Source: Spirochaetia bacterium (GTDB lineage Bacteria > Spirochaetota > Spirochaetia > SZUA-6 > Bin103). From it: a stretch of 64,000 nucleotides of DNA. This document shows, in pieces, positions 1 to 34,193 of the stretch; position 1 is the first letter of the stretch; each line of letters opens with the position of its first letter. Below the pieces are notes generated by a model. That model worked only from the letters and a program-made list of their open reading frames with translations, was not told the origin of the DNA and ran no database searches. The DNA lies in the NCBI GenBank assembly GCA_965198005.1, contig CBDAOI010000003.1:768479-832478 (forward strand), given 5' to 3'. The position numbers were made by a program, and so were the translations under genes.

Positions 1-1
1 C

Positions 2-1690
2 GCGGCTGACAAGCGGTATGTGACCGACCCCGCCACCGGCATGACGTGGACCGAGCCCCAGTATGGCGGGACACTCACGTGGGCCCATAAGCAGTTTCCT
101 AAGAGTGCTGACCCGTACTCGGCTGGTGGCTGGCCGCCTCACTTCATCAGTGGTGTTAATGAGAAGCTGGTCATCGCCGACTGGGCAATATCCAGGGAAA
201 AGACGGTTGACCTAAACTGGTTCTATACGGGCCCAGAGATGTACAGAGGGAATCTGGCTGAAAGCTGGTCAATGCCCGACGACACAACGTGGATCTGGAA
301 CATCCGGCAGGGCGTTTACTACCATGATAAGCCACCGATGAACGGTCGGGAGTTCGATGCTTATGACATCGAATGGAACTATCACCGCTATTTGGGTCTG
401 GGTGATTTCACCGAAGACGGACCTGGGGGCTATGTAGGTGGTCTAGAGTTCGAATCGGTTACCGCCACCGACAAATGGACGGTTGAGCTTAAGCTGAAGA
501 AGCCTAACTTCAATACGGTGCGGGGAATGCTCCACAACTCAGCTTGGATATTACCCCCCGAGGTAATCGAGAAATACGGCGACTATGTGGATTGGCGGAA
601 CGTGGTCGGCACCGGGCCCTATCGACTGACTGACCATGTGGAGGACACCTCTGCAACCTGGGAGAAGAATCCTGACTACTGGGGTGTTGACGAAAAATTC
701 GGGAACCGCATACCCTATATTGACGAGTTAAAGTCCCTCCTTATACCAGACATTTCAGCACGTCTGGCGGCAATGCGCACGGGTAAGATTGATATGCTGT
801 CTAACACCGGCGACGCTCATCTAGCCAATATCGACCATGTAGAGAGCCTCCAGAAGACCAACCCTGAAATCGATGTGTGGCCCGCTTATGTCTGGAATGC
901 AGGCACTTTCATGTTTAACCACTCTTTGCCGCTCACGCAGGACGTCAATGTGAAAAAGGCACTGCAGATGTCAGTGGACCGCGAGACACTTGCCGCTACC
1001 TTCTTTAAGGGTTGGGCAGATCCAGCACCTTCTGGGTTTATAAATCAAGCGGCTGAAGGGTTTGCCTGGCCATATGAAGACTGGCCCGATGAGGTCAAGG
1101 CAGGCTATAGGTATGACCCGGAAGGTGCCGAGAAGCTCCTCGATGAGGCTGGGTACCCGCGCGGCGCCGACGGCTACAGATTAACGCTCAAGATTGGCCA
1201 TCACGCGAGGAACGAACCGACCTATACAGAAATCCTCATGGGGTACTTCGACGCCATTGGCGTTAAAAGCGAGATGGTTGTGATTACTGACCCTGAGCTG
1301 CCACCTCTCGGAACGGCGGACACGCACGAGTTGCACTTACAGGGTTGGGTGGTATATGGGACTAAGCGCCCCATCCACTATATGTATGGTCTAACAGAAC
1401 TTCGTGGTTGGAAATATAGCAAAACGAAGGACCAGCGAATGCACGACCTGATTGCCGCCATGAAACGTGTTCCCACCTTGGAGGAGTGGCAGAGCTATAG
1501 TCGACAGGTCGATGAGATCACTGTAAGGGAGCACTGGGGCCTAGTCAAACCCCTATCCCCTCTGTTTAGCGTGAGCCAGCCGTGGGTCGAGGGTTATGCC
1601 GGTGAATTTGGTCTGGGATTCACTGAACGTCATACCCACTTTGCCCGCCTCTGGATTGATAGTGAGCTGAAGGAAGCAATGGGTCGTTAG
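2..1690 (+). CDS. ABC transporter substrate-binding protein, family 5 (peptide/opine/nickel type). It is 5'-partial: the frame is open to the window edge.
   Basis: Translation (…AADKRYVTDPATGMTWTEPQYGG…ESWSMPDDTTWIWNIRQGVYYHDK…) is collinear with three paralogues in this window (12688-14175, 30789-32558, 48707-50527). The upstream frame from position 2 continues the alignment, so the signal peptide lies off-window. Confidence 0.85.
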   Translation, partial: AADKRYVTDPATGMTWTEPQYGGTLTWAHKQFPKSADPYSAGGWPPHFISGVNEKLVIADWAISREKTVDLNWFYTGPEMYRGNLAESWSMPDDTTWIWNIRQGVYYHDKPPMNGREFDAYDIEWNYHRYLGLGDFTEDGPGGYVGGLEFESVTATDKWTVELKLKKPNFNTVRGMLHNSAWILPPEVIEKYGDYVDWRNVVGTGPYRLTDHVEDTSATWEKNPDYWGVDEKFGNRIPYIDELKSLLIPDISARLAAMRTGKIDMLSNTGDAHLANIDHVESLQKTNPEIDVWPAYVWNAGTFMFNHSLPLTQDVNVKKALQMSVDRETLAATFFKGWADPAPSGFINQAAEGFAWPYEDWPDEVKAGYRYDPEGAEKLLDEAGYPRGADGYRLTLKIGHHARNEPTYTEILMGYFDAIGVKSEMVVITDPELPPLGTADTHELHLQGWVVYGTKRPIHYMYGLTELRGWKYSKTKDQRMHDLIAAMKRVPTLEEWQSYSRQVDEITVREHWGLVKPLSPLFSVSQPWVEGYAGEFGLGFTERHTHFARLWIDSELKEAMGR

Positions 1691-1729
1691 GGGCTTCACC
1701 CCTTGTGGCTGACCTCAGGGCAAGAGGGA

Positions 1730-1753
1730 GCTGGGAAGCTTACGCTTCCCAGC
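1730..1753 (+). promoter_or_regulatory. Perfect 10-bp-stem hairpin (GCTGGGAAGC-TTAC-GCTTCCCAGC) 40 nt after the SBP stop. Candidate intra-operon attenuator or mRNA stabiliser.
   Basis: The hairpin is read directly. Equivalent hairpins follow the SBP stop at 32608-32637 and on the minus strand near 12660-12690. It has no T-run, so it is not a classic intrinsic terminator. Confidence 0.4.
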
Positions 1754-1766
1754 TCCCGCAGCCGTT

Positions 1767-2163
1767 GTCATTGCGAGGCGCGCTTTCTTACTGTCATCCC
1801 GGACTTGATCCGGGATCCAGGAGTTCTTGGCCTAGATTCCGGATCAAGCCCGGAATGACAAATCAACCTGATCACCACTCTTCGCAAACGTTACCGTCAT
1901 TCCGGCGAAAAGCCTGCCCCGCATTGGAATCGGGGCCGGAATCCAGTTGTAAGTCACGTGTGAATTGATAGCAGGGCGTAAGACCCCCCTCCTTAATCCT
2001 CCCCCAGTGGGGGAGGAGATAATTCCTCTCCCCCTCGCAGGGGGAGATTGAGAGGGGGGAGCAAGGCGCCCGCCCATGCGCTGGGGTTAAGGTTAGCCAG
2101 ACCCGAAGCAATCGGGAAGGCCGCGAGATTGCCACGCCCCGATAAATCGGGGCTCGCAATGAC
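1767..2163. repeat. MITE/REP-like palindromic repeat cluster (~397 bp) bounded by an 11-bp perfect inverted repeat, GTCATTGCGAG…CTCGCAATGAC.
   Basis: It contains several hairpins of the type (GTCAT)TCCCGG-loop-CCGGGA(ATGAC), including TCATCCCGGACTTGATCCGGGAT, ATTCCGGATCAAGCCCGGAATGAC and GTCATTCCGGCGAAAAGC…GCCGGAATCCAG. Two G/C hairpins are also present: CCTCCCCCAGTGGGGGAGG and TCTCCCCCTCGCAGGGGGAGA. A homologous cluster sits at 32648-33109. Confidence 0.6.
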
Positions 2164-2169
2164 AAGGAG

Positions 2170-3187
2170 GTGTGTCACATGAGAGCCTATCTCATCAGGC
2201 GGTTATTGCTGGTAATCCCCACCCTGTTCATATTGACCATCATAGTCTTTCTCGCGGTGCGCTTCATCCCCGGCGATTTAATAGACATTATGGTGGCTGA
2301 GATGGGAGGATGGTATGCCACGGGTGGCGATATAGACCGCGAAGCTCTTGAGCGTATGCTGGGTTTAGACGTGCCTGTGTACGTACAGTACGGACGCTGG
2401 ATAGGAGTGTTGCCTACCCCTGACTGGGTTACCAAGGAGTCCCACTTCAACGGTATCCTCCAGGGCACGCTTGGCGAACCACTGATTGGCGTTTTTTCTA
2501 CGATAGAGGAGCAGATAATAGGTAGATTGCCAGTAACCATTGAGCTTGGCGCCATGGCAATCGTAATCGGGCTAGTGATAGCCCTGCCCGTCGGCATCTA
2601 CTCGGCGATTCGCCAGGATACCGCCAGACTACGTGGGGCGCTCCATCGCCATCATCGGCCTGGCAACGCCTAACTTCTGGCTGGCAATTATGGTCATGCT
2701 CTACCCGGCAATCTGGTGGGGCTGGTCGCCGTCGATGGAGTATATCCCTCTTGTCGAAGACCCGCTGGGGAATCTCGGGATGTTCATCATTCCCAGCGTG
2801 ATTCTGGGGACGGCCTCGGCTGCAGCCACAATGCGGATGACGCGCACCATGATGCTGGAGGTGCTGAGGCAGGACTACATCAGGACGGCCTGGTCCAAGG
2901 GTCTCAAGGAGAGGGTAGTTATTATCAGACACGCCATCAAAAATGCACTCATCCCGGTAGTTACTCTGATAGGCCTGCAGTTGCCCCTCCTGGTAGGCGG
3001 CTCCGTTATCATAGAGGAAATATTTAACCTGCCGGGGATAGGTCGTATGTTTCTGGATGCACTCGAAGGGAGAGACTACCCGGTGGTCCAAGGAGTAAAC
3101 CTGTTTTTCGGCGGCGTAGTTCTGCTTACCATTCTACTTACCGACATGATCTACCCTTACCTGGACCCCAGGGTCCGCTACACGTAG
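2170..3187 (+). pseudogene. DppB-type ABC permease with a frameshift at about 2625-2640. It is carried as two ORFs, 2170-2673 and 2633-3187.
   Basis: The intact paralogue 33174-34175 reads through (…AIRQDTAADYAGRSAALIGLATPNFW…). Here the frame switches after AIRQDT and is 2 nt short relative to copy B. The likely start is MRAYLIRR at 2179. Confidence 0.75.
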
Positions 3188-3196
3188 AGGAGGCAT

Positions 3197-4099
3197 ATGA
3201 GCGACGCTGCAGGGATGCCATCGACAGAAATTGCGCCAAGGAGACGTTCCCGGCTGGCTGAATTCTTTATCAGGCTGGTCAAGGAGAAGCCACTGGGTGC
3301 TGCCAGCGGGATTATCATATTGATATGGATTCTGATCGCGATCTTTGCCGATGCTCTGACCCCTTATCCACCTTTTGAAATCCACCTGGCAGACCGGCTG
3401 CAGGGCTCATCCGCCCAGTATCTCCTGGGGACGGACCAGATAGGGCGAGACTTATTGAGCCGCCTGATCCTGGGGGGTCGTCTTTCCATACTGATCGGTC
3501 TGTCCATCACCGCTCTGAGTACTGTGATCAGTACCCTGATAGGCGGCACTTCCGGATTCCTTGGTGGTAAGTTTGACATTATAGTGCAGAGGGTTGTCGA
3601 TGCCTGGATAGTTTTCCCGGGACTGCTCCTGTTGCTAACCATAATGTCTATAGTGGGGCCGGGTATACCACAGATAATACTGGTCCTGGGGATATCAGGA
3701 GGTATTGGCGGCTCAAGAGTACTCAGAGGCACCGTTATCGGCATTAAAGAGAATGATTACTTTCTGGCGGCGCGGGCAATTGGGAGCCCCACCACCGCAA
3801 CACTGATGCGGCATGTCCTGCCCAATGTTATGCCTGTCGTCATCATCATATTCTCGATAACCGTAGGAGGCGTAATCCTGAGTATTGCTTCTCTGAGCTT
3901 CCTCGGATACGGTCTGCCCCCCACGAGTCCTGACTGGGGGTCTCTGCTCAGCCGGGAAGGACGTAAATACATGGAGCAGGCGCCATGGCTAGCTCTCTGG
4001 CCTGGTCTTTGCCTGACTATTACCGTTTACTGTCTAAACATGCTCGGCGACGCCCTCAGGGACCTCCTCGACCCCAGGCTCAGGGGCGGCGAGGGGTGA
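3197..4099 (+). CDS. DppC-type ABC transporter permease.
   Basis: It has a C-terminal-proximal transmembrane domain with the binding-protein-dependent signature (…GTDQIGRDLLSRLILGGRLSI…PNVMPVVIIIFSI…). Its start lies 10 nt after the stop of the upstream permease. It is collinear with 34194-35126 and 51579-52445. Confidence 0.85.
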   Translation: MSDAAGMPSTEIAPRRRSRLAEFFIRLVKEKPLGAASGIIILIWILIAIFADALTPYPPFEIHLADRLQGSSAQYLLGTDQIGRDLLSRLILGGRLSILIGLSITALSTVISTLIGGTSGFLGGKFDIIVQRVVDAWIVFPGLLLLLTIMSIVGPGIPQIILVLGISGGIGGSRVLRGTVIGIKENDYFLAARAIGSPTTATLMRHVLPNVMPVVIIIFSITVGGVILSIASLSFLGYGLPPTSPDWGSLLSREGRKYMEQAPWLALWPGLCLTITVYCLNMLGDALRDLLDPRLRGGEG

Positions 4100-4130
4100 A
4101 GGGGGGGGATGCCGTCAGCCGTCAGCCGTC

Positions 4131-4158
4131 AGCCCCGACGCGTCGGGGCGCCCCTACC
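4131..4158. repeat. REP-like palindrome AGCCCCGACGCGTCGGGGCGCCCCTACC, preceded by a (CGTCAGC)x3 tandem.
   Basis: The same 26-bp sequence recurs at 8105-8132 next to an IS200-like RAYT fragment. Confidence 0.6.
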
Positions 4159-4362
4159 GAAGGTGACGTGGGACGACAACGGCCGACCCTCTTTATCTGG
4201 CAAGTGCCTTCTGGCGTTCTTCCCACTCGCGCCGCAAAACCCATCCAACCGCACTGTTTCCAGACCAGCGGGCGGTGCCTTCATAACCTAGTATTGATGA
4301 TTAACTGACGAACAATCTGCCATGCACAACTTCAGCACTTCTTCGATTCTCAAGGAGACACT

Positions 4363-7074
4363 ATGAGTAGCACCCATGTCCTCCCCTTTGCAGTTCAAGA
4401 CAACGCACTTGCTGCCGATCTGGATACGGTAGGCGGCAAAGGCCAGTCGTTGGCAAGCATGACTGCTGCCGGATTTCCAGTCCCGGCAGGCTTTACGGTG
4501 ACGACAACCGCCTACCGGCAGTTCGTTTCTGACAACGACCTTCAGCAGGCCATCATCGATGGGGCAAAACCGGAGCTCGTGGGCACAGCGGTGTCTTTCG
4601 ATTCCGCCTCGCAACAAATCCAGGCGTTGTTTGCCGAAGCTGAGCTAACGGATGAACTGAAGGCGCAGATCGGTTCAGCTTATACCGCCTTCGGCGCAGG
4701 CGAGCCACCGGTTGCGGTGCGTTCATCGGCCAACGCGGAAGACCTGCCGGATCTGTCGTTCGCGGGGCAGCAGGACACCTATCTCAACATACGCGGTCGC
4801 GATGCAGTGTATGCGTCGGTGCGCGACTGTTGGGCGTCTCTGTGGACCGCACGGGCCATCAGTTATCGGCATGAACATGCCATCGCCCAGGAGGCGGTTG
4901 CCATGGCGGTGGTGGTGCAGAAAATGGTGCCGTCAGAAGTCTCGGGCATCCTGTTTACCGCCAACCCGGCGACGGGGGAGCGGTCCGAGATGATCGTCAA
5001 TGCCAGTTTCGGGTTGGGCGAGGCGATTGTCGGCGGCGAGATCACCCCCGATACCTACATCATCGACCGGGACACGTTGGCGGTCAGGGAGACCATTATC
5101 GGCAGCAAGGAGCACATGATGGTGTCCGCTGCAGGCCAGGGCACCGACACCCGGGAGTTGAGCGCGGCGGAACGGGAACAGTCGTCGCTGGCGGAGCCGG
5201 TGTTGCGGGAACTGGCCCAACTCGCCATCGCCGTGGAGCGGCACTTCGGCCAGCCCCAGGATATCGAGTGGGCAGTCGTCAACGGGACACTGTCGCTGCT
5301 GCAGTCGCGCCCGATTACCAACCTGCCTCCGGCACCGCTGAAGGATATTCGGTGGGAGAAGCCCGACATGCCGGATTGGTTCCCGGGATATCCACGAGGT
5401 GGACCTGGTGCACCATTGCTGCGAAAAAACCTGGTGGAGCATATCCCGGGGCCGGTCTCGCCACTGTTCGAAGATCTCTACCTGAAGGATGCGGTGGGCG
5501 GTCGAGCGACACATAGTGTTCATTACGCTGTCAATGGCTATGCGTACGTCACGTCGGGTACGCCCCCAGGTGTGGAACCCTATCCAACCACCCGTGTGTT
5601 TCCTGGGTCGGCGAACGAACAGACCCCTACTATCGCAAATATGCGGCTGTCCAAGAACCAGTCCACGAATACGGCGAGCCATATCTACGGCACTGGCAAA
5701 TGGGCCAAGGTCTACGCCGACTGGTTTAATTCGTGGGGCAAGGAAACGTTGCCCGCATACCTGGCGGTGATTGATGAGTGGCGGCAGGTGGACCCGCAGG
5801 CGGCGTCGGATGAGGCACTGCTGGATGGTATGTGTGCCCTGGCGAGAGCGGATGGCGAAACCTGGTACTCACCCACCATGAGACAAGACTCGATGATCAG
5901 CCATGTCGACACCAGGGCAGTCATGAATATGCTGCGGGGCGCCGAAATCACATTCCAGGATTTTCTGCAGAAAGCGGCCCCGGGGAAGGGGTTTAGCAGC
6001 GGCCAGTTCCTCAGCGGCCTGCGCTCGCTCTCCATGGAAGCCCAGGGCGAGATCTCCGATATTGCCGAACTCATCCGTGCCGATGAGGGACTCGTTGAGC
6101 TCGTGCTGACCACTCCCGCACAACGGCTGCTAGCCGCGTTGCGTGAGCGCTCAGAGGCAGCGCTGATCGTTCAGGCGATCGATCAGCATCTGCAGCGCTA
6201 CGGGCACCAGATCAGCACGCTCGACTTCGCCGAACCAACGCTTGCGGAAGACCCCTTGCCGGTGATGTTGAACCTGAAGGCAGTGGCCCGGGACACCAAC
6301 CACGACCCGGCCGCCACGCAGATCGACCTCGCCAGGCGACGTCAGGCGGCCCTGAGGGAGGCGAAGCAGGCCTTCAGCGATGAAGACTGGCGGGAATTGT
6401 GCGAGTTCCTCTGGGTCATGAAGCGCGTTTATCCTGACCGCGACCAGGCGCTGTTTTACCTGGGGGCCGGATGGCCGACGCTGCGGCGGCTCGCACTCGA
6501 ACTGGGCAGCCGTCTGGTCGAGGCCGGCACCCTAACCCAGGCGGACGACCTCTTCTACCTGTGGAGAGCACAGCTCGAAGAGGCCATGGCGGCGCGCCAG
6601 GCGGGCCAGGCGCTGCCGGAACTCAAGGAACGTGTCGCCGAGCAGCGCGAACTTCAGCAGGCGCGCATGCGGCTGGTGCCACCGAACACGGTACCACCGG
6701 AAGAAGGTGAGGGGCCTGGCTGGGGCAAGACCGCCAACGACGCGGACAGTGACAGCTTAAACGGCAACGCCTGCAGTCCCGGCCAGATCACCGCCCGCGC
6801 CAGCCTCGTCATGTCCCCGGCCGATTTCGCGAAGATGCAACCCGGCACCATCCTCGTGTGCCCGATGACCACTCCCGCCTGGACGCAGCTGTTCTCCCAG
6901 GCAAAGGGTCTGGTGACCGATATTGGCGGCATCCTGACGCATGGCTCGATTGTGGCCCGCGAGTACAACATCCCCGCAGTGCTCGGACTCGGGATTGCCA
7001 CCAAGAGGATCAAGCACGGGCAGATGATCCGTGTGGATGGCGACAACGGGGTGGTCGCTCTCCTCGACGAGTGA
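4363..7074 (+). CDS. PEP-utilising enzyme family protein: PPDK-N-type ATP-grasp plus a C-terminal phosphohistidine swivel domain. It has the PEP synthase / rifampin-phosphotransferase-like architecture.
   Basis: N-terminus: GGKGQSLASMTAAGFPVPAGFTVTT. C-terminus: GGILTHGSIVAREYNIPAVLGLG, with a conserved His. It is 903 aa long. The paralogue at 35223-37940 is ~90% identical. Confidence 0.8.
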   Translation: MSSTHVLPFAVQDNALAADLDTVGGKGQSLASMTAAGFPVPAGFTVTTTAYRQFVSDNDLQQAIIDGAKPELVGTAVSFDSASQQIQALFAEAELTDELKAQIGSAYTAFGAGEPPVAVRSSANAEDLPDLSFAGQQDTYLNIRGRDAVYASVRDCWASLWTARAISYRHEHAIAQEAVAMAVVVQKMVPSEVSGILFTANPATGERSEMIVNASFGLGEAIVGGEITPDTYIIDRDTLAVRETIIGSKEHMMVSAAGQGTDTRELSAAEREQSSLAEPVLRELAQLAIAVERHFGQPQDIEWAVVNGTLSLLQSRPITNLPPAPLKDIRWEKPDMPDWFPGYPRGGPGAPLLRKNLVEHIPGPVSPLFEDLYLKDAVGGRATHSVHYAVNGYAYVTSGTPPGVEPYPTTRVFPGSANEQTPTIANMRLSKNQSTNTASHIYGTGKWAKVYADWFNSWGKETLPAYLAVIDEWRQVDPQAASDEALLDGMCALARADGETWYSPTMRQDSMISHVDTRAVMNMLRGAEITFQDFLQKAAPGKGFSSGQFLSGLRSLSMEAQGEISDIAELIRADEGLVELVLTTPAQRLLAALRERSEAALIVQAIDQHLQRYGHQISTLDFAEPTLAEDPLPVMLNLKAVARDTNHDPAATQIDLARRRQAALREAKQAFSDEDWRELCEFLWVMKRVYPDRDQALFYLGAGWPTLRRLALELGSRLVEAGTLTQADDLFYLWRAQLEEAMAARQAGQALPELKERVAEQRELQQARMRLVPPNTVPPEEGEGPGWGKTANDADSDSLNGNACSPGQITARASLVMSPADFAKMQPGTILVCPMTTPAWTQLFSQAKGLVTDIGGILTHGSIVAREYNIPAVLGLGIATKRIKHGQMIRVDGDNGVVALLDE

Positions 7075-7087
7075 CGGTGTGCGAATT

Positions 7088-7894
7088 ATGAAGATTCTGG
7101 TCACGAACGACGATGGTATTGATTCGCCAGGCATCCGGGCTCTCGCCGACGCGATGAGCCGGGTCGGGGAGGTGCTCATTGTTGCCCCGGACCAAGAGCA
7201 GAGTGGCATTGGCACCGCAGTATCCCTTCATAACGGCATTGCTGTTGCGGAACGAGACACTGCCATCGAAGGGGCGCGTGCCTATGCCGTCAGTGGCACA
7301 CCAAGTGATTGTGTGTTCCTGGGCTTAGGGCCATTGGCTGAAGGCAAGATTGACCTCGTCGTCTCCGGCATCAACACGGGTCCCAACCTCGGTAATGAAG
7401 TCCTGCAATCGGGTACCACCATGGCGACCCGGGTGGCTCATACCCGCAGTCCCAGGATCCCGTCAATTGCCGTCTCGCTGAGCCTATATGGGTCGCAAGA
7501 CCAGCGAGAGCCGCATTTTCCCCTTGCCGCCACGGTTTCCGAATTGTTGGCACGCAAAATAACGGAGGGCGAAATGCCGCCGGGCCTCACACTCAATGTG
7601 AACGTCCCCAGTGTCCCCCGCGGAGAAATCCGGGGTATTGCCGTCACAAGACCCTCGCCTGTTGGTTATTGGATGTGGAGAACGGAACAGGACGGCGATG
7701 GACTCTACTACAACAAGCTTTCCGCAATCGCAGCGGACCATCCCGACATCGAAGAGGGGACGGATGTCTGGGCTCTCAATCGGGGGCTCATATCCATCAC
7801 CCCGTTACGCCTCGAGGTCACCGACGATAAACTCATACCAGCGCTGAGTGAGCATACTCGTCGCTTAGAATCCGGTCTCAAGCAGATGATGTAA
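7088..7894 (+). CDS. surE: SurE 5'/3'-nucleotidase.
   Basis: MKILVTNDDGIDSPGIRALA… is a canonical SurE N-terminus. The ATG at 7088 lies 14 nt after the kinase stop, and an in-frame upstream ORF start at 7031 is unlikely. Confidence 0.85.
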   Translation: MKILVTNDDGIDSPGIRALADAMSRVGEVLIVAPDQEQSGIGTAVSLHNGIAVAERDTAIEGARAYAVSGTPSDCVFLGLGPLAEGKIDLVVSGINTGPNLGNEVLQSGTTMATRVAHTRSPRIPSIAVSLSLYGSQDQREPHFPLAATVSELLARKITEGEMPPGLTLNVNVPSVPRGEIRGIAVTRPSPVGYWMWRTEQDGDGLYYNKLSAIAADHPDIEEGTDVWALNRGLISITPLRLEVTDDKLIPALSEHTRRLESGLKQMM

Positions 7895-7974
7895 GCTAAC
7901 TAGAATTTACCAGGTTTATCTGCCATCCCTTATAGCGCCGAGGATACAGATGACTGCTATACACGTACTGCCTC

Positions 7975-8160
7975 TTGCCACTGCAGATGCCTGCCTGGAA
8001 ATGGTTGGGCGTACCGAATCATTATCCCCATGCGGCGTTGGATGCCTTCGTGATCATGCCCAGTCATGTTCATGCGATCATCGTGATCGCGGATATCGTA
8101 GGGGCGACCCCGACGCGTCGGGGCGCCCCTACCCAAGGCGCCCCCCGGGTGGACCGCGCG
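7975..8160 (+). pseudogene. Fragment of an IS200/IS605-like REP-associated tyrosine transposase (RAYT).
   Basis: …FVIMPSHVHAIIVIADIV… carries the HxH motif typical of the IS200 fold. It is short, has no proper start and runs into the REP copy at 8105-8132. Confidence 0.5.
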
Positions 8161-8232
8161 GGCCATCAGTTACCGGCATGAACATGCGATAGCGCAGGAG
8201 GCCGCTGCCATGGCGGTGGTAGTGCAGGTCTT
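8160..8232 (+). other. ~70-bp orphan fragment of the PEP-utilising enzyme gene.
   Basis: GGCCATCAGTTACCGGCATGAACATGCGATAGCGCAGGAGGCCGCTGCCATGGCGGTGGTAGTGCAG matches 4858-4925 and 35711-35780 (…AISYRHEHAIAQEAVAMAVVVQ…). Confidence 0.7.
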
Positions 8233-8277
8233 GGTAGAGTTGTTCCCACGAGTTGAATCCAAGGAAGGAAGAAAACA

Positions 8278-9117
8278 GTGACAGAGAAAAAGGGAAGACT
8301 TGCAGGCAAAGTGGCGGTTGTCACCGGCGGCAACAGTGGAATGGGGGCTGGAACGGTGGAACTATTCGTGGCCGAAGGGGCCCGGGTGGTGATCGCGGCC
8401 CGCGGCGAGGAAGCAGGACAGGCACTGGCCGATCGCTTGGGCGAAAATGCGATTTTCAAACGCACCGATGTCTCCGTGGAAGCCGATGTGCAAGCCCTGG
8501 TCGATGCCACAATCGAGAAGTGGGGGCGAGTGGATGTGTTGTTCAACAATGCCGGCATCGGGCAAGGCTTTGTCCCTCCTGAAAGGTTTACTCTGGAGGA
8601 TTTCAACCGAGTGATGATGACGAATCTCGGCTCCTGTTTCCTTGGTCTCAAATATGTGACCCCGATCATGAAAAAGCAGGGCGGCGGCAGCATCATCAAC
8701 AACGGCAGCACAGCCGGAGTGACGACCGATGGCGCCGGTCCGCTCTATTCCGCGAGCAAAGCGGGAGTCATCCATATCACCAAGGTCTGGGCTGTCGAGC
8801 TTGCCGAGCACGGGATTCGTGTTAACTGCATCTCTCCAGGAGCAATCGTGACCCCCATCTTCTGGGGCGGCTACCATACTCAATCGGCAGAGGAAAACGA
8901 ACGCCGGACCCAACGGCTGACAGAAACCTTTGCAAAAGAGTTACCGCTCAATCGCGCGGGGACCCCCGAAGACATTGCCTATGCTGCGTTGTATTTGGCG
9001 AGTGACGAAAGCCTCCACACTACAGGGCTCAATATGATGGTTGACGCCGGGCTGACCTGTCGTAATCGACCCTGGAAGAAGAGCGAAAGAAGGGCCGAAT
9101 CAATTGCTGGGGAGTGA
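8278..9117 (+). CDS. SDR-family oxidoreductase.
   Basis: It has a GKVAVVTGGNSGMG Rossmann motif, an NNAG motif and a YSASKAG catalytic motif. Confidence 0.85.
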   Translation: MTEKKGRLAGKVAVVTGGNSGMGAGTVELFVAEGARVVIAARGEEAGQALADRLGENAIFKRTDVSVEADVQALVDATIEKWGRVDVLFNNAGIGQGFVPPERFTLEDFNRVMMTNLGSCFLGLKYVTPIMKKQGGGSIINNGSTAGVTTDGAGPLYSASKAGVIHITKVWAVELAEHGIRVNCISPGAIVTPIFWGGYHTQSAEENERRTQRLTETFAKELPLNRAGTPEDIAYAALYLASDESLHTTGLNMMVDAGLTCRNRPWKKSERRAESIAGE

Positions 9118-9299
9118 AACGCCAGAGGAGGATGGATGGAAAAACCTCCATTTTCTTAAGCGATGCTATAATAGGCCAGGGCTATGTCCGGATTTGTCAT
9201 TGACGAAACTTAACCGCGAAGAATACGAGTAGAAGGACCCAAATCAAGTACCTAGTTCGCTGACTACTTTGACACCCATATTCGAATGGAGGAATTGAC

Positions 9300-9866
9300 G
9301 TGAACTCATCTAGTGAACAAGCTATTTTTGAAGACCGCTTCGATGGGGCGCTAGCCGAAGGCTGGTCATGGCTGAGGGAGAACCCGGACCGTTGGCGTAT
9401 TCGAGACAGCGGGCTGGAGATTTGCGTCGAGCCCGGTGACGCGGCTACGGTCAGGAACGCGTTGCTCAGGCCCGCGCCAGACCGCAGCGCTGGCACATTT
9501 GCCATCGAAGTGACCGTTACCAACCACACCTATCCAACCCAGCCATATGAGCAAGCGGGGATCACCTGGTACAATGACGGCAAGCCGGTATTCAAGGAGG
9601 TGAAGGAGCTCCTCGACGGTGAGCTTTACATCATTCCCGGGCGGCAGCCGATGGCGGCGAAGAGCGTCCGACTGCGCTTGCTGGTTACCGCGGATTCTTG
9701 GGAAGCACAATATCGCCCCGAAGATGCGACAGAATTCCAAACGGCGGCAACAGGCGACCTTCCCCCGCCGGGCGACGACCAGGTGAGTATCCAGTGCTAT
9801 AACGGCCCGGCAGATGCGGCGCATTGGATTCGGTTCGAGCACTTCAGCATTACGTCATTAACCTAA
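9300..9866 (+). CDS. Hypothetical protein, DUF1349-like (concanavalin-type beta-sandwich).
   Basis: The pattern FEDRFDG…EGWSWLRENPDRWRIRDSGLEI…QAGITWYNDG resembles the DUF1349/YesU fold family. There is no catalytic signature. Confidence 0.45.
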   Translation: MNSSSEQAIFEDRFDGALAEGWSWLRENPDRWRIRDSGLEICVEPGDAATVRNALLRPAPDRSAGTFAIEVTVTNHTYPTQPYEQAGITWYNDGKPVFKEVKELLDGELYIIPGRQPMAAKSVRLRLLVTADSWEAQYRPEDATEFQTAATGDLPPPGDDQVSIQCYNGPADAAHWIRFEHFSITSLT

Positions 9867-9945
9867 CTTTTCTATGACAGGGACACATCGTCGGCTCTGC
9901 GCGCATGCGCTCTGCACGCCTGGGGACGTCAGCAGGAGGTGAGTA

Positions 9946-10383
9946 GTGTTTAAGAAGCTTGATCATATCGGCGTTGTAACTACGGATATGAAGAGACTCA
10001 TCGATTTCTATGAAGGAATCCTGGGTTTCAGAGTTCGAGAGAGATTTGAGGCCGAGGCTGGTAAGGGCTCGGCTCAGCTGAAAGAGGTGGCCAATCTCAC
10101 CCTTGAAGAGGGTGCAGTGATAGAACTGTTTTCGATCGACGCAGGCGCTCCACCTGATCCTGAATACAACGCACCACCATTCGAAGCGGGCTTTCGATTG
10201 ATGGCGATCGAAGTGGAGGATATGGATCAGGCTGTGGAATATCTCACCAGCAAGGGAATAGAAGTCCATAGAGCGCACCAGGCTAATCCAGCCAGGTGGA
10301 TCAAAGACCCGGACGGCAATATGCTCATCTTATTTCCCTCGATCGTGTATGAGAATTACAGGAAACTAGACAAGAAAGCGTGA
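9946..10383 (+). CDS. VOC (glyoxalase/bleomycin-resistance/dioxygenase) family protein.
   Basis: LDHIGVVTTDMKRLIDFYEGILGF is the typical N-terminus of the VOC fold. The protein is 145 aa. Confidence 0.75.
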   Translation: MFKKLDHIGVVTTDMKRLIDFYEGILGFRVRERFEAEAGKGSAQLKEVANLTLEEGAVIELFSIDAGAPPDPEYNAPPFEAGFRLMAIEVEDMDQAVEYLTSKGIEVHRAHQANPARWIKDPDGNMLILFPSIVYENYRKLDKKA

Positions 10384-10439
10384 TGGCCGGTTACCCACAC
10401 GAAACCCTGAAGAGCCTCAAACTCAAATGGTAAGTGGAT

Positions 10440-10887
10440 CAGCCAGGGTGAGTCGCAGCGCATTGTCGGCGAGGGGCTCGAGGGGACGAGCCGTTACGGT
10501 AAGATCGTCAACATCGCCTCGGATGCCGGCAGGCAGGGCAGCCCCGGAAACCCACCATACCACGTCTCCAAGGCCGGCGCGACCAGTCTGACACAGGCAT
10601 CCGCTCGTGGACTCGCCCCGTTCAACATCAATGTGAATGCCATCTGCCCGGGTAATCTGTGGACGCCCATGCAGGAGCGGATACTGGCTCGCCGGACGGT
10701 GCTGGAGGGGTCTCTCGGCGGCCTAACACCGCGGCAAGTCTTCGAGGCGTCTTCGCAGCGCATGCCGCTGGGACGCAGGCAGACGCCGGAAGACGTGGCC
10801 TATCTTGCAGTGTTCCTGGCTTCCGAATACGCCAAGAACATCACCGGGCAGGCCATAAACGTCAACGGGGGCATGCGCATGGACTAG
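10440..10887 (+). pseudogene. C-terminal fragment of an SDR (3-oxoacyl-ACP reductase-like). The N-terminal Rossmann half is missing.
   Basis: …GKIVNIASDAGRQGSPGNPPYHVSKAGATSLTQA…NVNAICPG…GQAINVNGGM carries the YxxxK and C-terminal motifs only. The open frame starts abruptly after the VOC gene. Confidence 0.6.
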
Positions 10888-11000: not shown

Positions 11001-11699
11001 TCAACGGCCGGCGCCCCTGAGCCGCGGGTCGAGCAGGTCCCGCACGGCGTCACCGAACATGTTCAGGCTGTAAACAACGATGGTCAGCGCGACGCCTGGC
11101 CATAAAGCCAACCATGGCGCGTGCTCCATGTACCTACGCCCTTCCCGGCTGAGCATACCTCCCCAGCTAGGAATGTTCGGTGGCAGACCGAATCCGAGGA
11201 AGCTCAGAGAGGCCTCAGATATAATCACCCCCCCGATGTTGATGCTGAAGATGATGATGAGGGGCGCCACAATATTGGGCAGGACATGCCGCAACAGGAT
11301 TTGGGTCGTGGGGGTGCCCACGGCCTCGGCTGCCAGAAAATAGTCATTCTCCTTAATATCGATAACGGCGCCTCGGAGTACTCTCGAGCCGCCGATGCCC
11401 CCTGTTATCCCCAAGACCAAGATGATCTGGGGCAGACCCCGCCCCGCTATGGACATGATGGTCAATAACAGAAGCAGGCCCGGAAAAGCCATCCAAGCAT
11501 CGACAAATCTTTGTACACCCAGGTCCAGTTTACCACCAAAGAATCCTGAAATGCCGCCTATCAGGACAGCCACCCCAACATTGAGAGTGGTCGCGGCCAG
11601 ACCGACGGTCAACGAAAGACGAGCCCCGTAGACAAGGCGGCTCAGGAGGTCTCGCCCCAAAATTGTCAGCAACACCCGCCTGATGATATAGGCTCTCAT
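11001..11699 (-). pseudogene. Chimeric permease relic: the first ~13 codons of a DppB-type permease joined in-frame to the C-terminal two-thirds of a DppC-type permease.
   Basis: MRAYIIRRVLLTI is the DppB start (compare 33174). The continuation …LGRDLLSRLVYGARLSLTVGLAATTLNVGVAVLIGG… aligns with the DppC-type protein 34194-35126 from residue ~75. This implies an internal deletion of ~1.2 kb. Confidence 0.7.
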
Positions 11700-11744
11700 G
11701 TCACAGCTTATTGAGCGTCCGCAGCAAAACCCGGTGCAGGGGCA

Positions 11745-12535
11745 TCAAAAAATAACCTCTACTCCTCTTTCTCGGAGCCCAGGGATATAGACTTCCTTCG
11801 ACGTCTCGCTCAAGGGGTTACCAGACAAACTTACAGTGTCCCCCTCAGAAAGCCCGCCGTTCTCCACCAGTGGTGAGATGTCGCTTATTTGGTTAAACAT
11901 AAGGTCGAGCTCGGTGAGATTAGTCAGGGAAGCTAGCGGTGCAATGTCGCTTATCTGGTTCAACGCAAGGTCGAGCTCAGTGAGGTTAGTCAGAGAAGCC
12001 AGTGGTGAGATGTCGCTTATCCGGTTCTTCCTAAGGGCGAGATTGGTGAGATTAGTCAGGGAAGCTAGCGGCGAGATGTCGCTTATCCGGTTGTCGTAAA
12101 GGCTGAGCGAGGTGAAGTTGGCGAGCGAAGCCAGTGGTGAGAGGTCGCTTATCCGTCCATAGTGGAAAACCAGCTCGGTAAGGTTACTCAAATACTCCAA
12201 TCCGGCGAGGTCGGTGATCTTGACTCTCGCATATCCCCTGCCTGATTCACGAAGCGAGGTGATGGTTTCCAGCTCCGAAACATGGATGGGACCTTGATGC
12301 TTCTGGATAGCTGCCCTTATGACTCTCTCAAGAGCTTCGTCGGGGATGGTGACCCCTTCGCCCACTTCTTCTGTAGCACTAACAGGTTCTTCTGCAGTAC
12401 ACTAACAGGTTCTTCTGCAGTACTTGCAGGTTCTTGTTCTTCTGCAGTATTTACAGGTTCTTCCGCAGGGCCACAGCCGGAAAGAGTGAATATCATTACG
12501 AAGACAACGAACAAAGGCAAGCATTTCCTATCCAT
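11745..12535 (-). CDS. Leucine-rich-repeat lipoprotein. An apparent frameshift or overlap falls in the N-terminal repeat region.
   Basis: The N-terminus is MDRKCLPLFVVFVMIFTLSGC (a lipobox). Four or more 22-aa LRR units follow (LASLTNLTxLxLxxNxISDISP). ORFs 12317-12535 and 11745-12365 overlap across a tandem DNA repeat (ACAGGTTCTTCTGCAGTA)n at 12370-12475. Confidence 0.6.
11860..12140. repeat. 66-bp coding tandem repeats (LRR units), four or more copies.
   Basis: The unit GGTGAGATGTCGCTTATC(C/T)GGTT…AGGTCGAGCTC(G/A)GTGAG(A/G)TTAGTCAG(G/A)GAAGC(T/C)AG(C/T)GG is reiterated. Confidence 0.8.
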
Positions 12536-12687
12536 CTGCGTCCACCTCCTGTTGCTTACCGCCCAAATTATACGCTGGCGCTCTATCCCGTTGCCCTGAG
12601 CAGAGGAACTGGGAAGCGCGCTTGCATTTCCTATCCATCTGCGTCCACTTCCTGTTGCAAGCGACAGCCTCCCAGCTCCCTTTTTCC

Positions 12688-14175
12688 CTAACGACCCATG
12701 GCGTTCTTCAGCTCACTATCGATCCAGATCCGGGCTTGGACGGTATTACGTTCACCCCATCCCATTCCTGCTTCACCGAAATAACCCTCGACCCACGGCT
12801 GGCTCACGGAAAACTGAGGGGACTTGGATTTGACTAGGCCCCAGTGCTCCCTCACAGTGATCTCATCGGCCTGTCTCAAAAGACTCCTATACTCCTCCAA
12901 GTCGGTAGTTTCTTGGGAGGCAAGATACAGGGCGTCCATACGCGGGTCCTTCGCTTTGTTGTAGCTCCAGCCAAAGTTTTGGCTAATCCCCTTCATGGGA
13001 TTCCAAAAGGTGACGCTGCTGCCGCCATTATATCCCCCTTGCACTAGCGCCCACTCGTGCGTGTCCGCGCTATTGTCAGCGTTATGCTCAGCGATAGTCT
13101 GCGGGACAAGCTCGCCTTCAACGCCAATGGCGTCGAAGTACCCCATGATGAGTTCTGCATAGTCTGTGGTGTACCTCTCAAAGGCCCTTACCTTGAGCTT
13201 GAATCTATAGCCGTCGGCGCCGCGGGGATACCCGGCCTCATCAAGGAGCTCCTCGGCCCTTTCGGGGTTATAGGTATATTCTTGCTTGACCTCCTCGGGC
13301 CACTCTTCATATGGCCAGGCCCACCCTTCTTCAAGATCTTGTCTCATTAACCCGGCAGGCGCTGGATCTCCATAACCCTTAAAGAAGCTGGCGGAATTTG
13401 CCTCGCGGTCCACTGACATCTGCAGTGCCTTGCGCACAATGGGGTCGGCAGTGGGCGGCAAAGCCCAGTTGAAAACGAAAACGCCGGCCGGTGCCCCAAG
13501 AAAGGGCCACACCTCGATTTCAGGGTTGGTCCGCTCGAGGGTCTCCAAATCGTCGACATTGTATATCCAAGAGTCGCCGAAGTTACCCATCACATCAATC
13601 TTACCCGTGCGGAATGCTGCCAGACGTGCTGACATCTCTTTCATCATCAGGGACCTTAACTCGTCAATATAGGGTAGGCGGTTCTCCGGGAATTTTTCGT
13701 CGTAGCCCCAGTAGTTAGGATTCTTCTCCCAGGTTACAGAGCTGCCGTCCACGTACTCAGTCAGTCTCCAGGGCCCGGTGCCGACCAGGTTCCTCCAGTC
13801 CTTAGCGTCTCCGTACTTCTCGATTACCTCGGGAGCGTACGCAACCCAGTAGGGGTTGAGCAGTTTCCCCAGCACATCGAGGGTAGGCTCCGTCAGCTTC
13901 ATAACTACCGTCCATTTGTCGGTGGCCGTTACCGATTCGAGACCTACACCCCAGGTGGTAGCAAATGTATGGGCGCTAGGTCCGGCCTCGGTGAAATCGC
14001 CCAGACCGAAATAGCGGTGATAGTTGTGTTCGACGTCATAGGCATCGAACTCCCGACCGTTCACCGGCTCCTTATCGTCCCAGTAAACGCCCTTGCGGAT
14101 GTTCCAGATGAACGTTGTGTCGTCGGGCATCGACCAGCTTTCAGCCAGAGCCCCTGTAGTCATCTCTGGGGTCAC
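12688..14175 (-). pseudogene. N-terminally truncated family-5 SBP (no signal peptide, ~100 N-terminal residues missing).
   Basis: It begins at …ALAESWSMPDDTTFIWNIRKGVYWDDKEPVNGREFDAYD…, which is residue ~75 of copy A. There is no upstream coding continuation. The post-stop hairpin region is conserved. Confidence 0.7.
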
Positions 14176-16331: not shown

Positions 16332-17273
16332 TCAGGCCGGCAGGTGCCAGCCGGCGGGGCTGCGGACGGCGAGGCCGCGCTGTTCAAGGGTTTGGAGGGC
16401 GAGACCGAGACGGGCGTTGTTGACGCGCAAGCGTTGGCGGAGGGCGGTCCTGGAGAGCGGCTGGCCGGCGCTGCGGAGAGCGGCGCGCACCGCCTCGGCG
16501 AGCGGGGGCGGCGGGGCGGCAGCACTGTCGACGAGCAGGGAGAGGGGCTGGTCAGCGCCGCCTGAGAGGCGCAGCAGGAGGGGATCGGGAGCGGGAGCGG
16601 CGCGGTGCTCGACGGTGAGTTGGAGACGGTCGTCGGGGCGCCGCACCAGATAGCAGGCGGAGTCGGTCCAGGCGTGCAGGTCGGAGGAGCCGCGCAGAGA
16701 CTGGCCGAGATTGCGGCGCGAGCGCTTGGCCATGTGGTGGACGAGGACCAGAGCGAGTTGATAGCGGCGGTTGAGGGCGCGCAGAAAGCCGAGCAGAGAA
16801 GAGATGTCTGAGGCGCTGTTCTCGTCGAGACAATGAAGTCGGACCAGAGGGTCCAACAGCAGGAGTATGGGACGGATCTGAGCCACGGTCTGGTCGAGCG
16901 CGAGCTGGTCGCGCTCGGTATCGAGGCGCAGCCGGTCGGAGGTGACGACGTGCAGGTCGAGGCGGGTTAGGTCCAGGCCGCGGTGGCGGCACAAGTGGGC
17001 GACACGGTCGCGGACGCGGGGCAGAGCATCCTCGGCGAGATAGACCAGGGCGGGACCGGTGGCCTCGACCGGGAACCGCCCGAGGGCTGGGGTGCCGGAC
17101 GCGACCGAGACCGCGAGATCAAGTCCTAGCCAAGACTTACCAACTTTGGGCTGACCCCCGATTGCCCCCACGGCGGCGGCGGTCCAGAGGTCGTGCACCA
17201 ACCACTGGGGGGTGTCGGATTGGGGATCGATGGCATGGACGGGAACGGTGGGCAGCGGTTTGGTCATGGCCAC
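16332..17273 (-). CDS. AAA_25 / RepA-like RecA-fold ATPase associated with the tni module.
   Basis: …GAIGGQPKVGKSWLGLDLAVSVASGTP… is a Walker A loop in the AAA_25 context. Its start overlaps the tniB stop by 10 nt (17264-17273). Confidence 0.6.
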   Translation of the reverse strand: MAMTKPLPTVPVHAIDPQSDTPQWLVHDLWTAAAVGAIGGQPKVGKSWLGLDLAVSVASGTPALGRFPVEATGPALVYLAEDALPRVRDRVAHLCRHRGLDLTRLDLHVVTSDRLRLDTERDQLALDQTVAQIRPILLLLDPLVRLHCLDENSASDISSLLGFLRALNRRYQLALVLVHHMAKRSRRNLGQSLRGSSDLHAWTDSACYLVRRPDDRLQLTVEHRAAPAPDPLLLRLSGGADQPLSLLVDSAAAPPPPLAEAVRAALRSAGQPLSRTALRQRLRVNNARLGLALQTLEQRGLAVRSPAGWHLPA

Positions 17274-18067
17274 AGGTACCTGCGAGCGGCGATCACGTCA
17301 CCGGCACTGACGGTGGTGGCGGGGGTCTTGGCGGCGTGCTGCAGCGCCGCCAAGGCCAAGCGGTCGATGGCCCGCAGGTTGCCGTGGCTCATTTCGAAGA
17401 TGGTTTCCTGAGCGTCGCCGTCGAAGGGATTGGTGCGAGCGCCGGCGAGGGTGCAGCGATGTTCGACGTAGGCGCAGGTCTCATCCCGGGAGAGCAGACG
17501 CAGTTCGGCGTAATGCGCCAGACGGTGCGCGATGCCGGTTTGTTCGGGGCGTCGGAGGAGCAGTTTCAGGTGTGGCTGGCCGGCGAGCACGAGGGACACG
17601 ACGAGGCGACTGTCCATTTCGAAGTTCGTGAGGACCCTCAACATGGCCAACGCTTCGGGGCGCAGATCATGGGCCTCGTCGAACAGGATGACCGGGCGCA
17701 GACCGTCGCTGGCGGTGTGTTCGAAAGCCTCCTGCAGCTTGCGCACCAGAGCGGGATAAATGCCGGTGGGAGAGAGGCCGCAGGCGACGGCGATTTCCTT
17801 GCACAGGTCACGCTTGGAGAGGCCGGTCACCTTGACGTAATGGACCTGGAAGCGCGCCTCCGGCAGAGCGGCGAAGAGCATGCGCAAGGCGACGGTCTTA
17901 CCGGTGCCGGCGGGAGCGATGAGGGCGGCGCTCATGCGCTCCTGCACCGCCTCGGTGAGTGCGGTGGCGACCTGTGCTTGAGGTTCGAGAGGGAACCGCT
18001 CGCGCACGGTCAACTCGCGGGTAAAGGGGGTCTTGCGGAAGCCCAGTGGGCTGAGGTCATGGCTCAT
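17264..18067 (-). CDS. tniB: TniB-type transposition ATPase (AAA_22 / ExeA-like).
   Basis: Motifs: LIAPAGTGKTVAL (Walker A), ILFDEAHDL (Walker B), LVLAGQPHL. Its start overlaps the tniA stop by 4 nt (18064-18067). Confidence 0.75.
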   Translation of the reverse strand: MSHDLSPLGFRKTPFTRELTVRERFPLEPQAQVATALTEAVQERMSAALIAPAGTGKTVALRMLFAALPEARFQVHYVKVTGLSKRDLCKEIAVACGLSPTGIYPALVRKLQEAFEHTASDGLRPVILFDEAHDLRPEALAMLRVLTNFEMDSRLVVSLVLAGQPHLKLLLRRPEQTGIAHRLAHYAELRLLSRDETCAYVEHRCTLAGARTNPFDGDAQETIFEMSHGNLRAIDRLALAALQHAAKTPATTVSAGDVIAARRYLWP

Positions 18068-18735: not shown

Positions 18736-18891
18736 CGTGTCGAGGGAGATGAATCCCGGGCCTTTATCAAGGAAATGCCGAATTCGGCATTACCTTGATT
18801 ATCCCGAAAAAAATGAAATGCCGAAGTTTGTCGGTAACTTGTTTCCACACAAACAGATAGCGTTGCAAACTTCGGCATAACATTGGGGCTC

Positions 18892-23895: not shown

Positions 23896-23995
23896 TCACC
23901 TGCTGCGGGCTCCTCACTTTATACCCCTATCGCTTCTCCGCCTACGCCATCATCACCGCAACCGGTACCCCCTCACCGCGCCCTTGGGCGCGCAA

Positions 23996-32558: not shown

Positions 32559-32607
32559 GGGTTTTGAGCAGCCGCGGCCACCCATTGTGGCTGAGCTCAG
32601 GGAAAAA

Positions 32608-32637: not shown

Positions 32638-32647
32638 CCCACACGAT

Positions 32648-34175: not shown

Positions 34176-34193
34176 AGGGGGGAAACCGGAAAT

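Follow-up and report, generated by a model that had tools for sequence, protein, structure and literature searches.

Why would genes for a peptide-type importer stand, twice in the same neighborhood, in line with a gene for a large phosphotransfer enzyme and one for a nucleotidase? The question is raised by a stretch of 64,000 nucleotides from a Spirochaetia bacterium (contig CBDAOI010000003.1, positions 768,479 to 832,478; hereafter the window). According to the open reading frame (ORF) listing and Pfam scans of this 64-kb window, the order substrate-binding protein (SBP), DppB-type permease, DppC-type permease, kinase and SurE is present twice, both times on the + strand. The core unit comprises a periplasmic family-5 SBP, two Dpp/Opp-type permeases and an RPH-family dikinase, and as far as our literature search went, the association of the genes in this block is undescribed. 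Exact-protein look-ups matched the window to sponge-type metagenome contigs at 99.9% identity. Based on sequence comparisons, we lean towards the view that a sponge-associated bacterium has here an accessory locus specific to its lineage, in which an ATPase-less PepT-type uptake module is joined by an RPH-family dikinase that would act on the imported compound or on a moiety that such compounds share, with surE as a probable housekeeping neighbor.

Two diverged copies of the gene block

The first copy begins at the left end of the window with SBP1 (2-1690, +; PF00496, E 2e-57), a family-5 (Dpp/Opp/Nik-type) SBP whose 5' end is cut by the window edge; its full length in the near-identical contigs L001-L006 is 599 amino acids. 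It is followed by the permeases DppB1 (2179-3187, +; PF19300 and PF00528 on two separate ORFs) and DppC1 (3197-4099, +; OppC_N and BPD_transp_1, with an intact EAA loop), by kinase 1, an RPH-family small-molecule dikinase of 903 amino acids (4363-7074, +; ATP-grasp domain, central substrate domain and C-terminal His swivel with H860), and by SurE1, a canonical 5'/3'-nucleotidase of 268 amino acids (7088-7894, +; PF01975, TIGR00087, NDDG motif). The second copy comprises SBP2 (30789-32558, +; 589 amino acids, PF00496, E 9e-69), which has a Sec-type signal peptide without a lipobox cysteine, DppB2 (33174-34175, +; assigned by Pfam, with all NCBIfam matches below cut-off), DppC2 (34194-35126, +; Pfam and NCBIfam), both with intact EAA loops, and kinase 2 (35223-37940, +; 905 amino acids, 87% identical to kinase 1 and 99.8% to protein P0010). 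It closes with a SurE2 pseudogene (ORF 37954-38532, remnant to 38644, +) that carries a 13-bp deletion and lacks approximately its last 34 codons.

Self-BLAST revealed collinear DNA homology of 83% in the permease part (2164-4095 vs 33159-35092) and of 88% from the kinase into surE (4412-7791 vs 35275-38644), far beyond chance. Together with the ORFs and the Pfam matches, this bears out the original prediction, made from the sequence of the window, that a five-gene order occurs twice. The same prediction put permeases and kinases at ~90% identity. At the amino acid level the kinase comes near to this (87%), but the permeases fall short (DppB 76-81%, DppC 74%), and identity is 78% for SurE and 43-45% for the SBPs. 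The two blocks are diverged copies, not clean duplicates. Nor are they each other's closest relatives; kinases 1 and 2 are not sisters within the clade of kinases that share at least 82% identity.

Short intergenic gaps, which had been put forward as a sign of a single operon, separate only kinase and surE (13 nt) and DppB and DppC. The gap between SBP and DppB is ~490 nt in copy 1 and ~615 nt in copy 2, and that between DppC and kinase is 263 and 96 nt. The repeated unit is real, and a compact, operon-like version of it occurs in the relatives L098/L099, but within the window SurE2 is not a full gene, and the loss of 2 bp at 2626/2627 splits DppB1, which is intact (336 amino acids) in contigs L003-L006 of 99.9% identity.

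Conservation between the copies is uneven. The final ~80 nt of the kinase genes are identical (6925-7087 vs 37790-37953); identity amounts to 93-95% in the 3' third of the kinase, compared with 54-89% elsewhere in the block. These near-identical 3' ends suggest gene conversion between the copies.

A dikinase related to rifampin phosphotransferase

The kinase has an N-terminal PPDK_N (ATP-grasp) domain (PF01326, E 6e-100), a central domain with a precomputed match to PF27448 (Rph_4th) and a C-terminal PEP-utilizers swivel domain (PF00391, residues 826-896 of 903). Thus, the enzyme has the architecture of the RPH and phosphoenolpyruvate (PEP) synthase type that was originally proposed. The best PDB sequence match is the Listeria rifampin phosphotransferase RPH-Lm (5HV1/5FBS), at ~24% identity. 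Catalytic residues K22, R117, T136, E297, R666 and H825 of RPH-Lm, whose roles we take from PMC4844700, align with K26, R120, T139, E302, R693 and H860, and these six are invariant in 18 homologues. The first four belong to nucleotide binding, and R693 matches the Arg of phosphotransfer. A motif rule for dikinases places the catalytic His no more than 50 residues from the C terminus (PMC12167813), and H860 lies 43 residues from the end. The best full-length Foldseek match of an AlphaFold2 model (pLDDT 71) is RPH 5HV1 (E 2.5e-36, TM-score only ~0.4), and HpeI and PEP synthase match the model in the ATP-grasp part only.

The likeness to RPH-Lm has clear bounds. The top NCBIfam matches carry PEP synthase or RPH names, all below cut-off, and no equivalog is reached (RIF_Ptrans_rph NF041857, 430 vs 999; RPH NF000283, 322 vs 1700). 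Residues 326-557 cannot be aligned with the rifampin-contacting region (~336-479 in RPH-Lm), E667 is replaced by Asp and K670 by Leu, and the window kinases follow ABC permease genes, whereas RPH stands alone. The equivalog scores and the unalignable rifampin region rule out a rifampin-resistance orthologue.

PEP synthase (PpsA) and pyruvate phosphate dikinase have ATP-grasp and phosphohistidine swivel domains in common with the kinase. Unlike them, it has no C-terminal PEP/pyruvate-binding domain (the Pfam scan found only PF01326 and PF00391), and its His domain lies at the extreme C terminus. It also scores below the PEP synthase equivalog TIGR01418 (394 vs 739.75) and likewise below the PRK06464 cut-off. 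The terminal His domain, the absent PEP/pyruvate domain and the TIGR01418 score rule out a bona fide PpsA, in line with what had been anticipated. The prodiginine-condensing PigC/RedH equivalogs are not reached either (NF052631, 368 vs 1300; NF052632, 388 vs 1350).

Taken together, these features make it very likely that the protein works as a dikinase, on a substrate that is neither rifampin nor pyruvate. In known relatives the phosphate goes to a hydroxyl group of an antibiotic or of a phenolic catabolite (PMC12167813). HpeHI, CreHI and the phenylphosphate synthase PpsAB, which belong to the same superfamily and share its chemistry, phosphorylate hydroxyls for catabolism (PMC12167813), and HpeI is the structural match to the ATP-grasp domain mentioned above. 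However, these enzymes are split into two proteins whose genes are followed by carboxylase genes, whereas the window encodes one fused protein and no carboxylase genes were seen there. The most variable segment of the kinase is the substrate side, residues 326-560 (74-78% identity, omega 0.27-0.48; omega being the ratio of nonsynonymous to synonymous rates).

An importer without ATPase genes

The transport genes resemble those of DppABCDF, OppABCDF and NikABCDE systems in their family-5 SBP with signal peptide, their two permeases with DppB/OppC N-terminal domains and their EAA loops. Sec signal peptides without a lipobox were read in SBP2 and SBP4 (the SBP of module 4, described below), and the permeases combine PF00528 with PF19300 or PF12911. 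Profile classification of the SBPs, which had been proposed, places them in family 5 (PF00496) but reaches no ligand class, as ten NCBIfam SBP models match at 30-91 bits against cut-offs of 393-1098 and no equivalog is reached. The PDB matches are scattered over DppA, HbpA, AccA, OppA and chitin-oligosaccharide binders, and the best sequence matches of SBP2 are DppA, HbpA and AccA (E 1e-18 to 1e-23). Two SBP2 relatives, P0375 (939 amino acids) and P0399 (715 amino acids), are fusions of an SBP to a Peptidase_M56 (BlaR1-type) domain, which hints that some members of the SBP family serve in sensing and not in transport.

Unlike the Dpp, Opp and Nik systems, the modules covered here, at least 12, have no D/F ATPase genes in cis. 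As originally claimed, no ABC ATPase domain was detected in any frame or ORF of the window by Pfam scans and tblastn, and tblastn detected none in 12 same-lineage loci holding at least 12 modules of SBP, DppB and DppC genes (SBP-B-C modules). The tblastn query was the DppF-type ATPase of locus L060, and the positive controls matched at 21 other loci. The EAA coupling loops of the permeases are intact, and that of DppB hardly varies among the modules, even in the ancient module 4. As a rule, a PepT system has two distinct ATPases. Precedent for sharing comes from incomplete sugar importers that run on a shared MsmX (B. subtilis) or MsmK (S. pneumoniae) ATPase, where several SBP-permease sets without an ATPase gene rely on one encoded elsewhere (PMC7658222). 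Given the lack of ATPase genes in cis, the intact EAA loops and this precedent, the ATPases are most likely supplied in trans and shared among modules. The precedent differs in that it concerns carbohydrate (CUT1) importers with a single shared ATPase, and the sharing in the window lineage is only inferred. A literature search on shared ATPases for oligopeptide systems found nothing directly relevant.

In the agrocinopine acc operon of Agrobacterium, a PepT-type SBP and permeases stand beside enzymes whose substrates are phosphate esters of the compound taken up. The resemblance includes AccA as one of the SBP2 matches, a weak one (E 1e-18). The acc operon differs in having its own ATPases, a phosphodiesterase and a phosphatase, and no kinase.

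Distribution of the block and of the kinase

How far does the association reach? The five-gene order is found only where the kinase is at least 82% identical, that is, in a clade of sponge-metagenome contigs with at least 15 kinase variants. Contigs L010/L011 show copy 2 again, with its truncated SurE and Mu-like neighbors. In L092 kinase and SurE are adjacent, and the SBP-B-C set lies 4.5 kb upstream, behind an inserted transposase. The compact version in L098/L099 runs RelA/SpoT, SBP, a 188-nt gap, DppB overlapping DppC, a 46-nt gap, kinase, a 13-nt gap and SurE; it stands in a housekeeping setting and is operon-like. In all kinase-bearing loci of the clade (the window, L010/L011, L092, L098/L099), surE lies 13 nt after the kinase on the same strand.

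Beyond this clade the linkage, which the original prediction had left to a neighborhood search, is not conserved. Kinase homologues at 67-71% identity (L007-L009, L100/L101) lack the linkage of kinase, SurE and transporter, and homologues at up to 72% identity are never beside SurE or Dpp-type genes. The neighbors at 67-71% identity are sulfatases, Rieske oxygenases, luciferase-like monooxygenases and exporters. Among 80 kinase loci from GTDB species representatives (37-71% identity), mostly marine or sponge Pseudomonadales and Thermoanaerobaculia, SurE is adjacent to the kinase in none; a SurE-like gene lies within 10 kb in two of the 80, both times on the opposite strand.

The RPH-like kinase family is heavily expanded in sponge and marine bacteria, in varied contexts. 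The closest homologues outside the lineage, in L007/L012 (Pseudomonadales MAG OY762456) and L100/L101, lie beside sulfatases, phosphodiesterase-family enzymes, Rieske oxygenases and a TonB receptor, and L007 encodes two RPH-like kinases 5.6 kb apart. In about 12 loci of Thermoanaerobaculia/Holophagales (Acidobacteriota) and Porticoccaceae (Gammaproteobacteria), a short-chain dehydrogenase (SDR) gene is directly upstream of the RPH-like kinase (L020, L026, L030, L031, L036, L039, L050, L059, L060, L072, L076 and L078), and this pairing may define another kinase subfamily. Unlike in those loci, the SDR gene of the window lies downstream of surE, across rearrangement scars. Literature searches on RPH-like kinases in sponge symbionts and on sponge spirochaete genomics found nothing directly relevant.

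SurE as a probable housekeeping neighbor

SurE1 is an ordinary member of its family. It passes TIGR00087 (191 vs a cut-off of 135.1), starts with MKILVTNDDG and matches solved SurE structures end to end. In SurE2, the 13-bp frameshifting deletion creates a stop at 38532, and the homology between the copies ends at 38644 inside surE, beside Mu-like genes. The copy-2 junction is repeated in L010/L011, with a SurE of 237 amino acids.

The gene occurs in diverse contexts. A kinase is present in L092 (SurE identity 80%), whereas in L096/L097 (79%) an SBP-B-C set lies upstream of an intact SurE and there is no kinase, and in L095 (76%) SurE is intact with only fragments of kinase and permeases. In L093 (68%) and L094 (55%), SurE stands alone among unrelated neighbors. 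A Glyoxalase/SDR gene pair recurs downstream of SurE in the window, L099 and L093, which suggests a syntenic backbone. SurE matches at ~50% identity carry Chloroflexi or Dehalococcoidales names, and the nearest named cluster members of SurE (80-83%) and SBP (51-71%) are labeled 'MAG: Spirochaetaceae bacterium'. An origin in Chloroflexota, to which the more distant matches had pointed, was therefore rejected, and Spirochaetaceae is the likely label, taken from the names of these cluster members. Because SurE is canonical, is intact without the kinase, stands alone in distant relatives and is truncated in copy 2, it is probably a resident housekeeping gene beside which SBP-permease(-kinase) modules accumulate, not the dedicated pathway enzyme that had been envisaged. 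It may nevertheless be co-transcribed with the block.

Divergence of the binding proteins and the spacers that precede the permeases

We estimated omega by three methods; maximum-likelihood dS is unstable for anciently diverged pairs (module 4; SBP2 vs SBP3) and was read there only as saturated. Omega is 0.2-0.3 for the kinase (kinase 1 vs kinase 2, 0.24-0.29) and for SurE, and 0.3-0.67 for the permeases of young modules (dS 0.2-0.65). It reaches 0.83-0.91 for SBP1 vs SBP2 and SBP1 vs SBP3, and 0.5-0.66 for SBPs 1-3 vs the L098 SBP. Evolution of the SBPs is thus close to neutral or driven by diversifying selection (omega 0.5-0.9), and SBP1 and SBP2 keep open frames of ~590-600 amino acids and signal peptides despite a dS of ~0.63. 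The SBP family is very large; clustering at 90% identity gives more than 120 separate clusters that lie at 51-73% identity, almost all of them of the same metagenome type, and many members are truncated.

SBP1 is closest to SBP3, whereas DppB1 and DppC1 are closest to DppB2 and DppC2. Such discordant histories of SBP and permeases fit recombination in the spacer, SBP swapping or diversification; both the discordance and the much faster divergence of the SBPs agree with the original prediction.

The SBP1-DppB1 spacer (1691-2178, +) contains a perfect hairpin with a 14-bp stem (1726-1757) and palindromes, TGTCATTCCGG, that resemble repetitive extragenic palindromic (REP) units, and inverted repeats at 1765-1786 and 2144-2165 bound its repeats. 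In the SBP2-DppB2 spacer (32559-33173, +) a hairpin likewise follows the SBP stop (32608-32639), along with REP-like palindromes. REP-like units lie at 1792-1905, 32669-32758 and 33066-33109. In the compact relative L098 the gap measures only 188 nt. This arrangement of a hairpin and palindromes after the SBP genes recalls the REP elements after malE in E. coli. They may set the ratio of SBP to permease expression or act as a recombination junction.

The DppC1-kinase spacer (4100-4362, +) contains three copies of the heptamer GCCGTCA, a REP-like hairpin (4133-4163) that recurs at 8108-8138, and a conserved leader with an AAGGAG ribosome-binding site. Its last ~50 nt match the entire 46-nt spacer of L098, in which the AAGGAG leader is conserved. 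Promoter and terminator consensus matches in 1-10500 are at or below shuffle expectation. In an Rfam scan of the window only group II intron domains matched; neither riboswitches nor other kinds of regulatory RNA were found.

Other modules and mobile elements in the window

The window holds further SBP-permease modules. Module 3 (11001-14175, -) is degraded; it consists of an N-terminally truncated SBP3 (12688-14175), a leucine-rich repeat (LRR) protein gene (11745-12365) and a 5'-truncated DppC3 (11001-11699), and relative to L002 DppB3 has been deleted. The LRR protein (11745-12365, -) has internal tandem repeats and is of a eukaryote-like type; in L003 a DDE transposase is inserted beside its gene. 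Module 4 (48707-52445, +) is old, intact and compact, with SBP, DppB and DppC genes followed by an FG-GAP protein and with neither kinase nor ATPase. Compared with modules 1-3 its dS is saturated and omega is 0.01-0.2; the module is anciently diverged and strongly constrained. A DppB fragment (45067-45317) adjoins a group II intron, and overlapping contigs reveal one more SBP-B-C module just upstream of the left end of the window.

The regions between modules are rich in mobile-element genes (recombinases, group II introns, AAA_22, AAA_25, rve and Mu-transposase fragments). Copy 2 is flanked at its left edge by a group II intron fragment (30451-30567, -; RF02005, 57 bits), and at its right end abut Mu-like transposition genes (38765-40310, -; an AAA_22 ATPase and a Mu-transposase C-terminal fragment). 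Two group II introns (23535-25688 and 45351-47230, +), each with a reverse-transcriptase ORF, share 97.6% identity along 1.7 kb. A run of three tyrosine recombinase genes (394, 338 and 411 amino acids; 18892-22107, -) adjoins AAA_25, AAA_22 and rve_3 genes (16332-18735, -), and the region 16332-22107 looks like a recombinase-trio mobile element. A similar integrase pair follows copy 2 in L010. A tRNA scan found no tRNA in the window, and hence no tRNA-linked island boundary.

Between SurE1 and the SDR gene, rearrangement scars (7990-8235, +) comprise an HUH-like motif, a REP-like hairpin and a kinase fragment. The first is a fragment of an IS200/RAYT-like HUH transposase (~8010-8100; motif MPSHVHAIIVI), assigned by eye only. 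The internal kinase fragment (8149-8227, +; 79 nt, codons ~160-186) is 90% identical to 4842-4920 and 86% to 35705-35791. The segment 8108-8138 was considered as a kinase remnant and rejected, as it is the REP-like hairpin common to the DppC-kinase spacer; only 8149-8227 is kinase-derived.

Further to the right are tandem paralogous zinc-type alcohol dehydrogenase-like genes (54806-55867 and 56007-57527, +; ADH_N_2 and ADH_zinc_N, 67% DNA identity) and a gene for an AAA-ATPase_like protein with a PD-(D/E)XK nuclease domain (PDDEXK_9; 58785-60629, +), which recurs near SurE/kinase loci (L096/L097, L009).

Discussion

In the accessory uptake locus that we favor, the SBP and the permeases would form the membrane part of a PepT-type ABC importer, and its ATPases, encoded elsewhere, would be common to many sister modules, as MsmX and MsmK are for sugar importers. 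The kinase would move the beta-phosphate of ATP onto His860, from where the swivel domain would hand it to a small molecule that bears a hydroxyl group; the products would be AMP, inorganic phosphate and the phosphorylated substrate. This molecule would most likely be the compound brought in, or a moiety that such compounds have in common, and once phosphorylated it would be trapped or activated in the cytoplasm. No observation favors a peptidyl-nucleoside, the substrate that had been suggested. Copy 2 ends inside surE and is bounded by mobile-element debris, and the SBPs would be swapped and diversify fast while the kinase is conserved.

Several observations weigh against this interpretation. 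The linkage is confined to one shallow clade, in which conserved order could reflect inheritance and not selection. Some block copies may be decaying, given the raised omega of the permeases, the DppB1 frameshift, the SBP3 truncation, the DppB3 deletion and the L095 fragments. The substrate side of the kinase (residues 326-560) is far more conserved between the copies than the SBPs, so the kinase may not act on the SBP ligand itself. Finally, surE follows so closely (13 nt) and so regularly in the same orientation that it may have a genuine functional link to the block.

That last point bears on a true five-gene pathway, in which a dedicated SurE would dephosphorylate a product or intermediate or remove the AMP made by the dikinase. 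AMP is a substrate of the SurE type. The dikinase reaction does yield it (PMC4844700, PMC12167813), and surE keeps its place and strand behind the kinase in every kinase-bearing locus of the clade. We nevertheless consider a dedicated SurE unlikely, as the gene persists intact without a kinase (L096/L097) or with a decayed one (L095), is solitary in distant relatives, is adjacent in none of the 80 more distant kinase loci and has an ordinary sequence that passes its equivalog cut-off. In copy 2, an intact kinase stands beside a truncated SurE in three assemblies, and if a phosphatase removed the very group that the kinase had added, the cycle would be futile. Somewhat less probable still, in our view, is that the blocks are largely paralogues in decay, in a part of a symbiont genome that recombines and is rich in mobile elements, their order resulting from recent segmental copying or transfer and not from a pathway at work. 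The debris is considerable; besides the lesions listed above it includes the SurE2 truncation, the kinase remnant at 8149-8227 and the DppB fragment at 45067-45317, and flanking recombinases, Mu-like genes and group II introns are at hand. Omega of 0.5-0.9 in the SBPs and 0.3-0.67 in the permeases could reflect relaxed constraint, and many SBP cluster members are truncated. Decay does not fit the kinase, with its omega of 0.2-0.3 and intact ORFs of ~900 amino acids in at least 15 variants, nor the long open frames and signal peptides that SBP1 and SBP2 retain at a dS of ~0.63, which are not expected under neutral decay. The block in L098/L099 is compact and intact, and four near-identical assemblies lack the DppB1 frameshift. 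Least credible is a rifamycin phosphotransferase or PEP synthase that adjoins transporter genes incidentally. RPH-Lm as the best sequence and fold match and the names of the top NCBIfam models would favor it, but the equivalog scores far below cut-off, the low identity to RPH-Lm, the unalignable rifampin region, the K670 to Leu change, the missing PEP/pyruvate-binding domain and the very large size of the family, in varied contexts in sponge and marine bacteria, make it very improbable.

A bolder scenario, which we regard as a long shot, goes beyond the accessory uptake locus. Tens to hundreds of ATPase-less PepT modules would run on one or a few shared ATPases, their SBPs would be shuffled at REP-laden spacers from one permease backbone to another and would evolve under positive selection for new ligands from the host, and in some modules an RPH-like dikinase acquired from co-resident sponge bacteria would trap the imported compound by phosphorylating it. 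Such sharing of ATPases would be, to our knowledge, the first case for Dpp/Opp-type importers.

The ATPase-less, rapidly diversifying repertoire of SBPs and permeases may be the more interesting lead from this locus. That many Dpp-type modules have no ATPase genes in cis suggests a sharing of ATPases not limited to sugar importers, and could explain how a genome widens its substrate range cheaply. The SBPs, evolving nearly neutrally or under diversifying selection, offer a natural test case for the evolution of ligand specificity. RPH-type dikinases have known roles in the inactivation of antibiotics, in pigment synthesis and in the catabolism of phenols, and a version linked to uptake would mean a new use for them, the capture or activation of an imported compound. 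If true, this would also provide a handle on what symbionts take from their sponge host.

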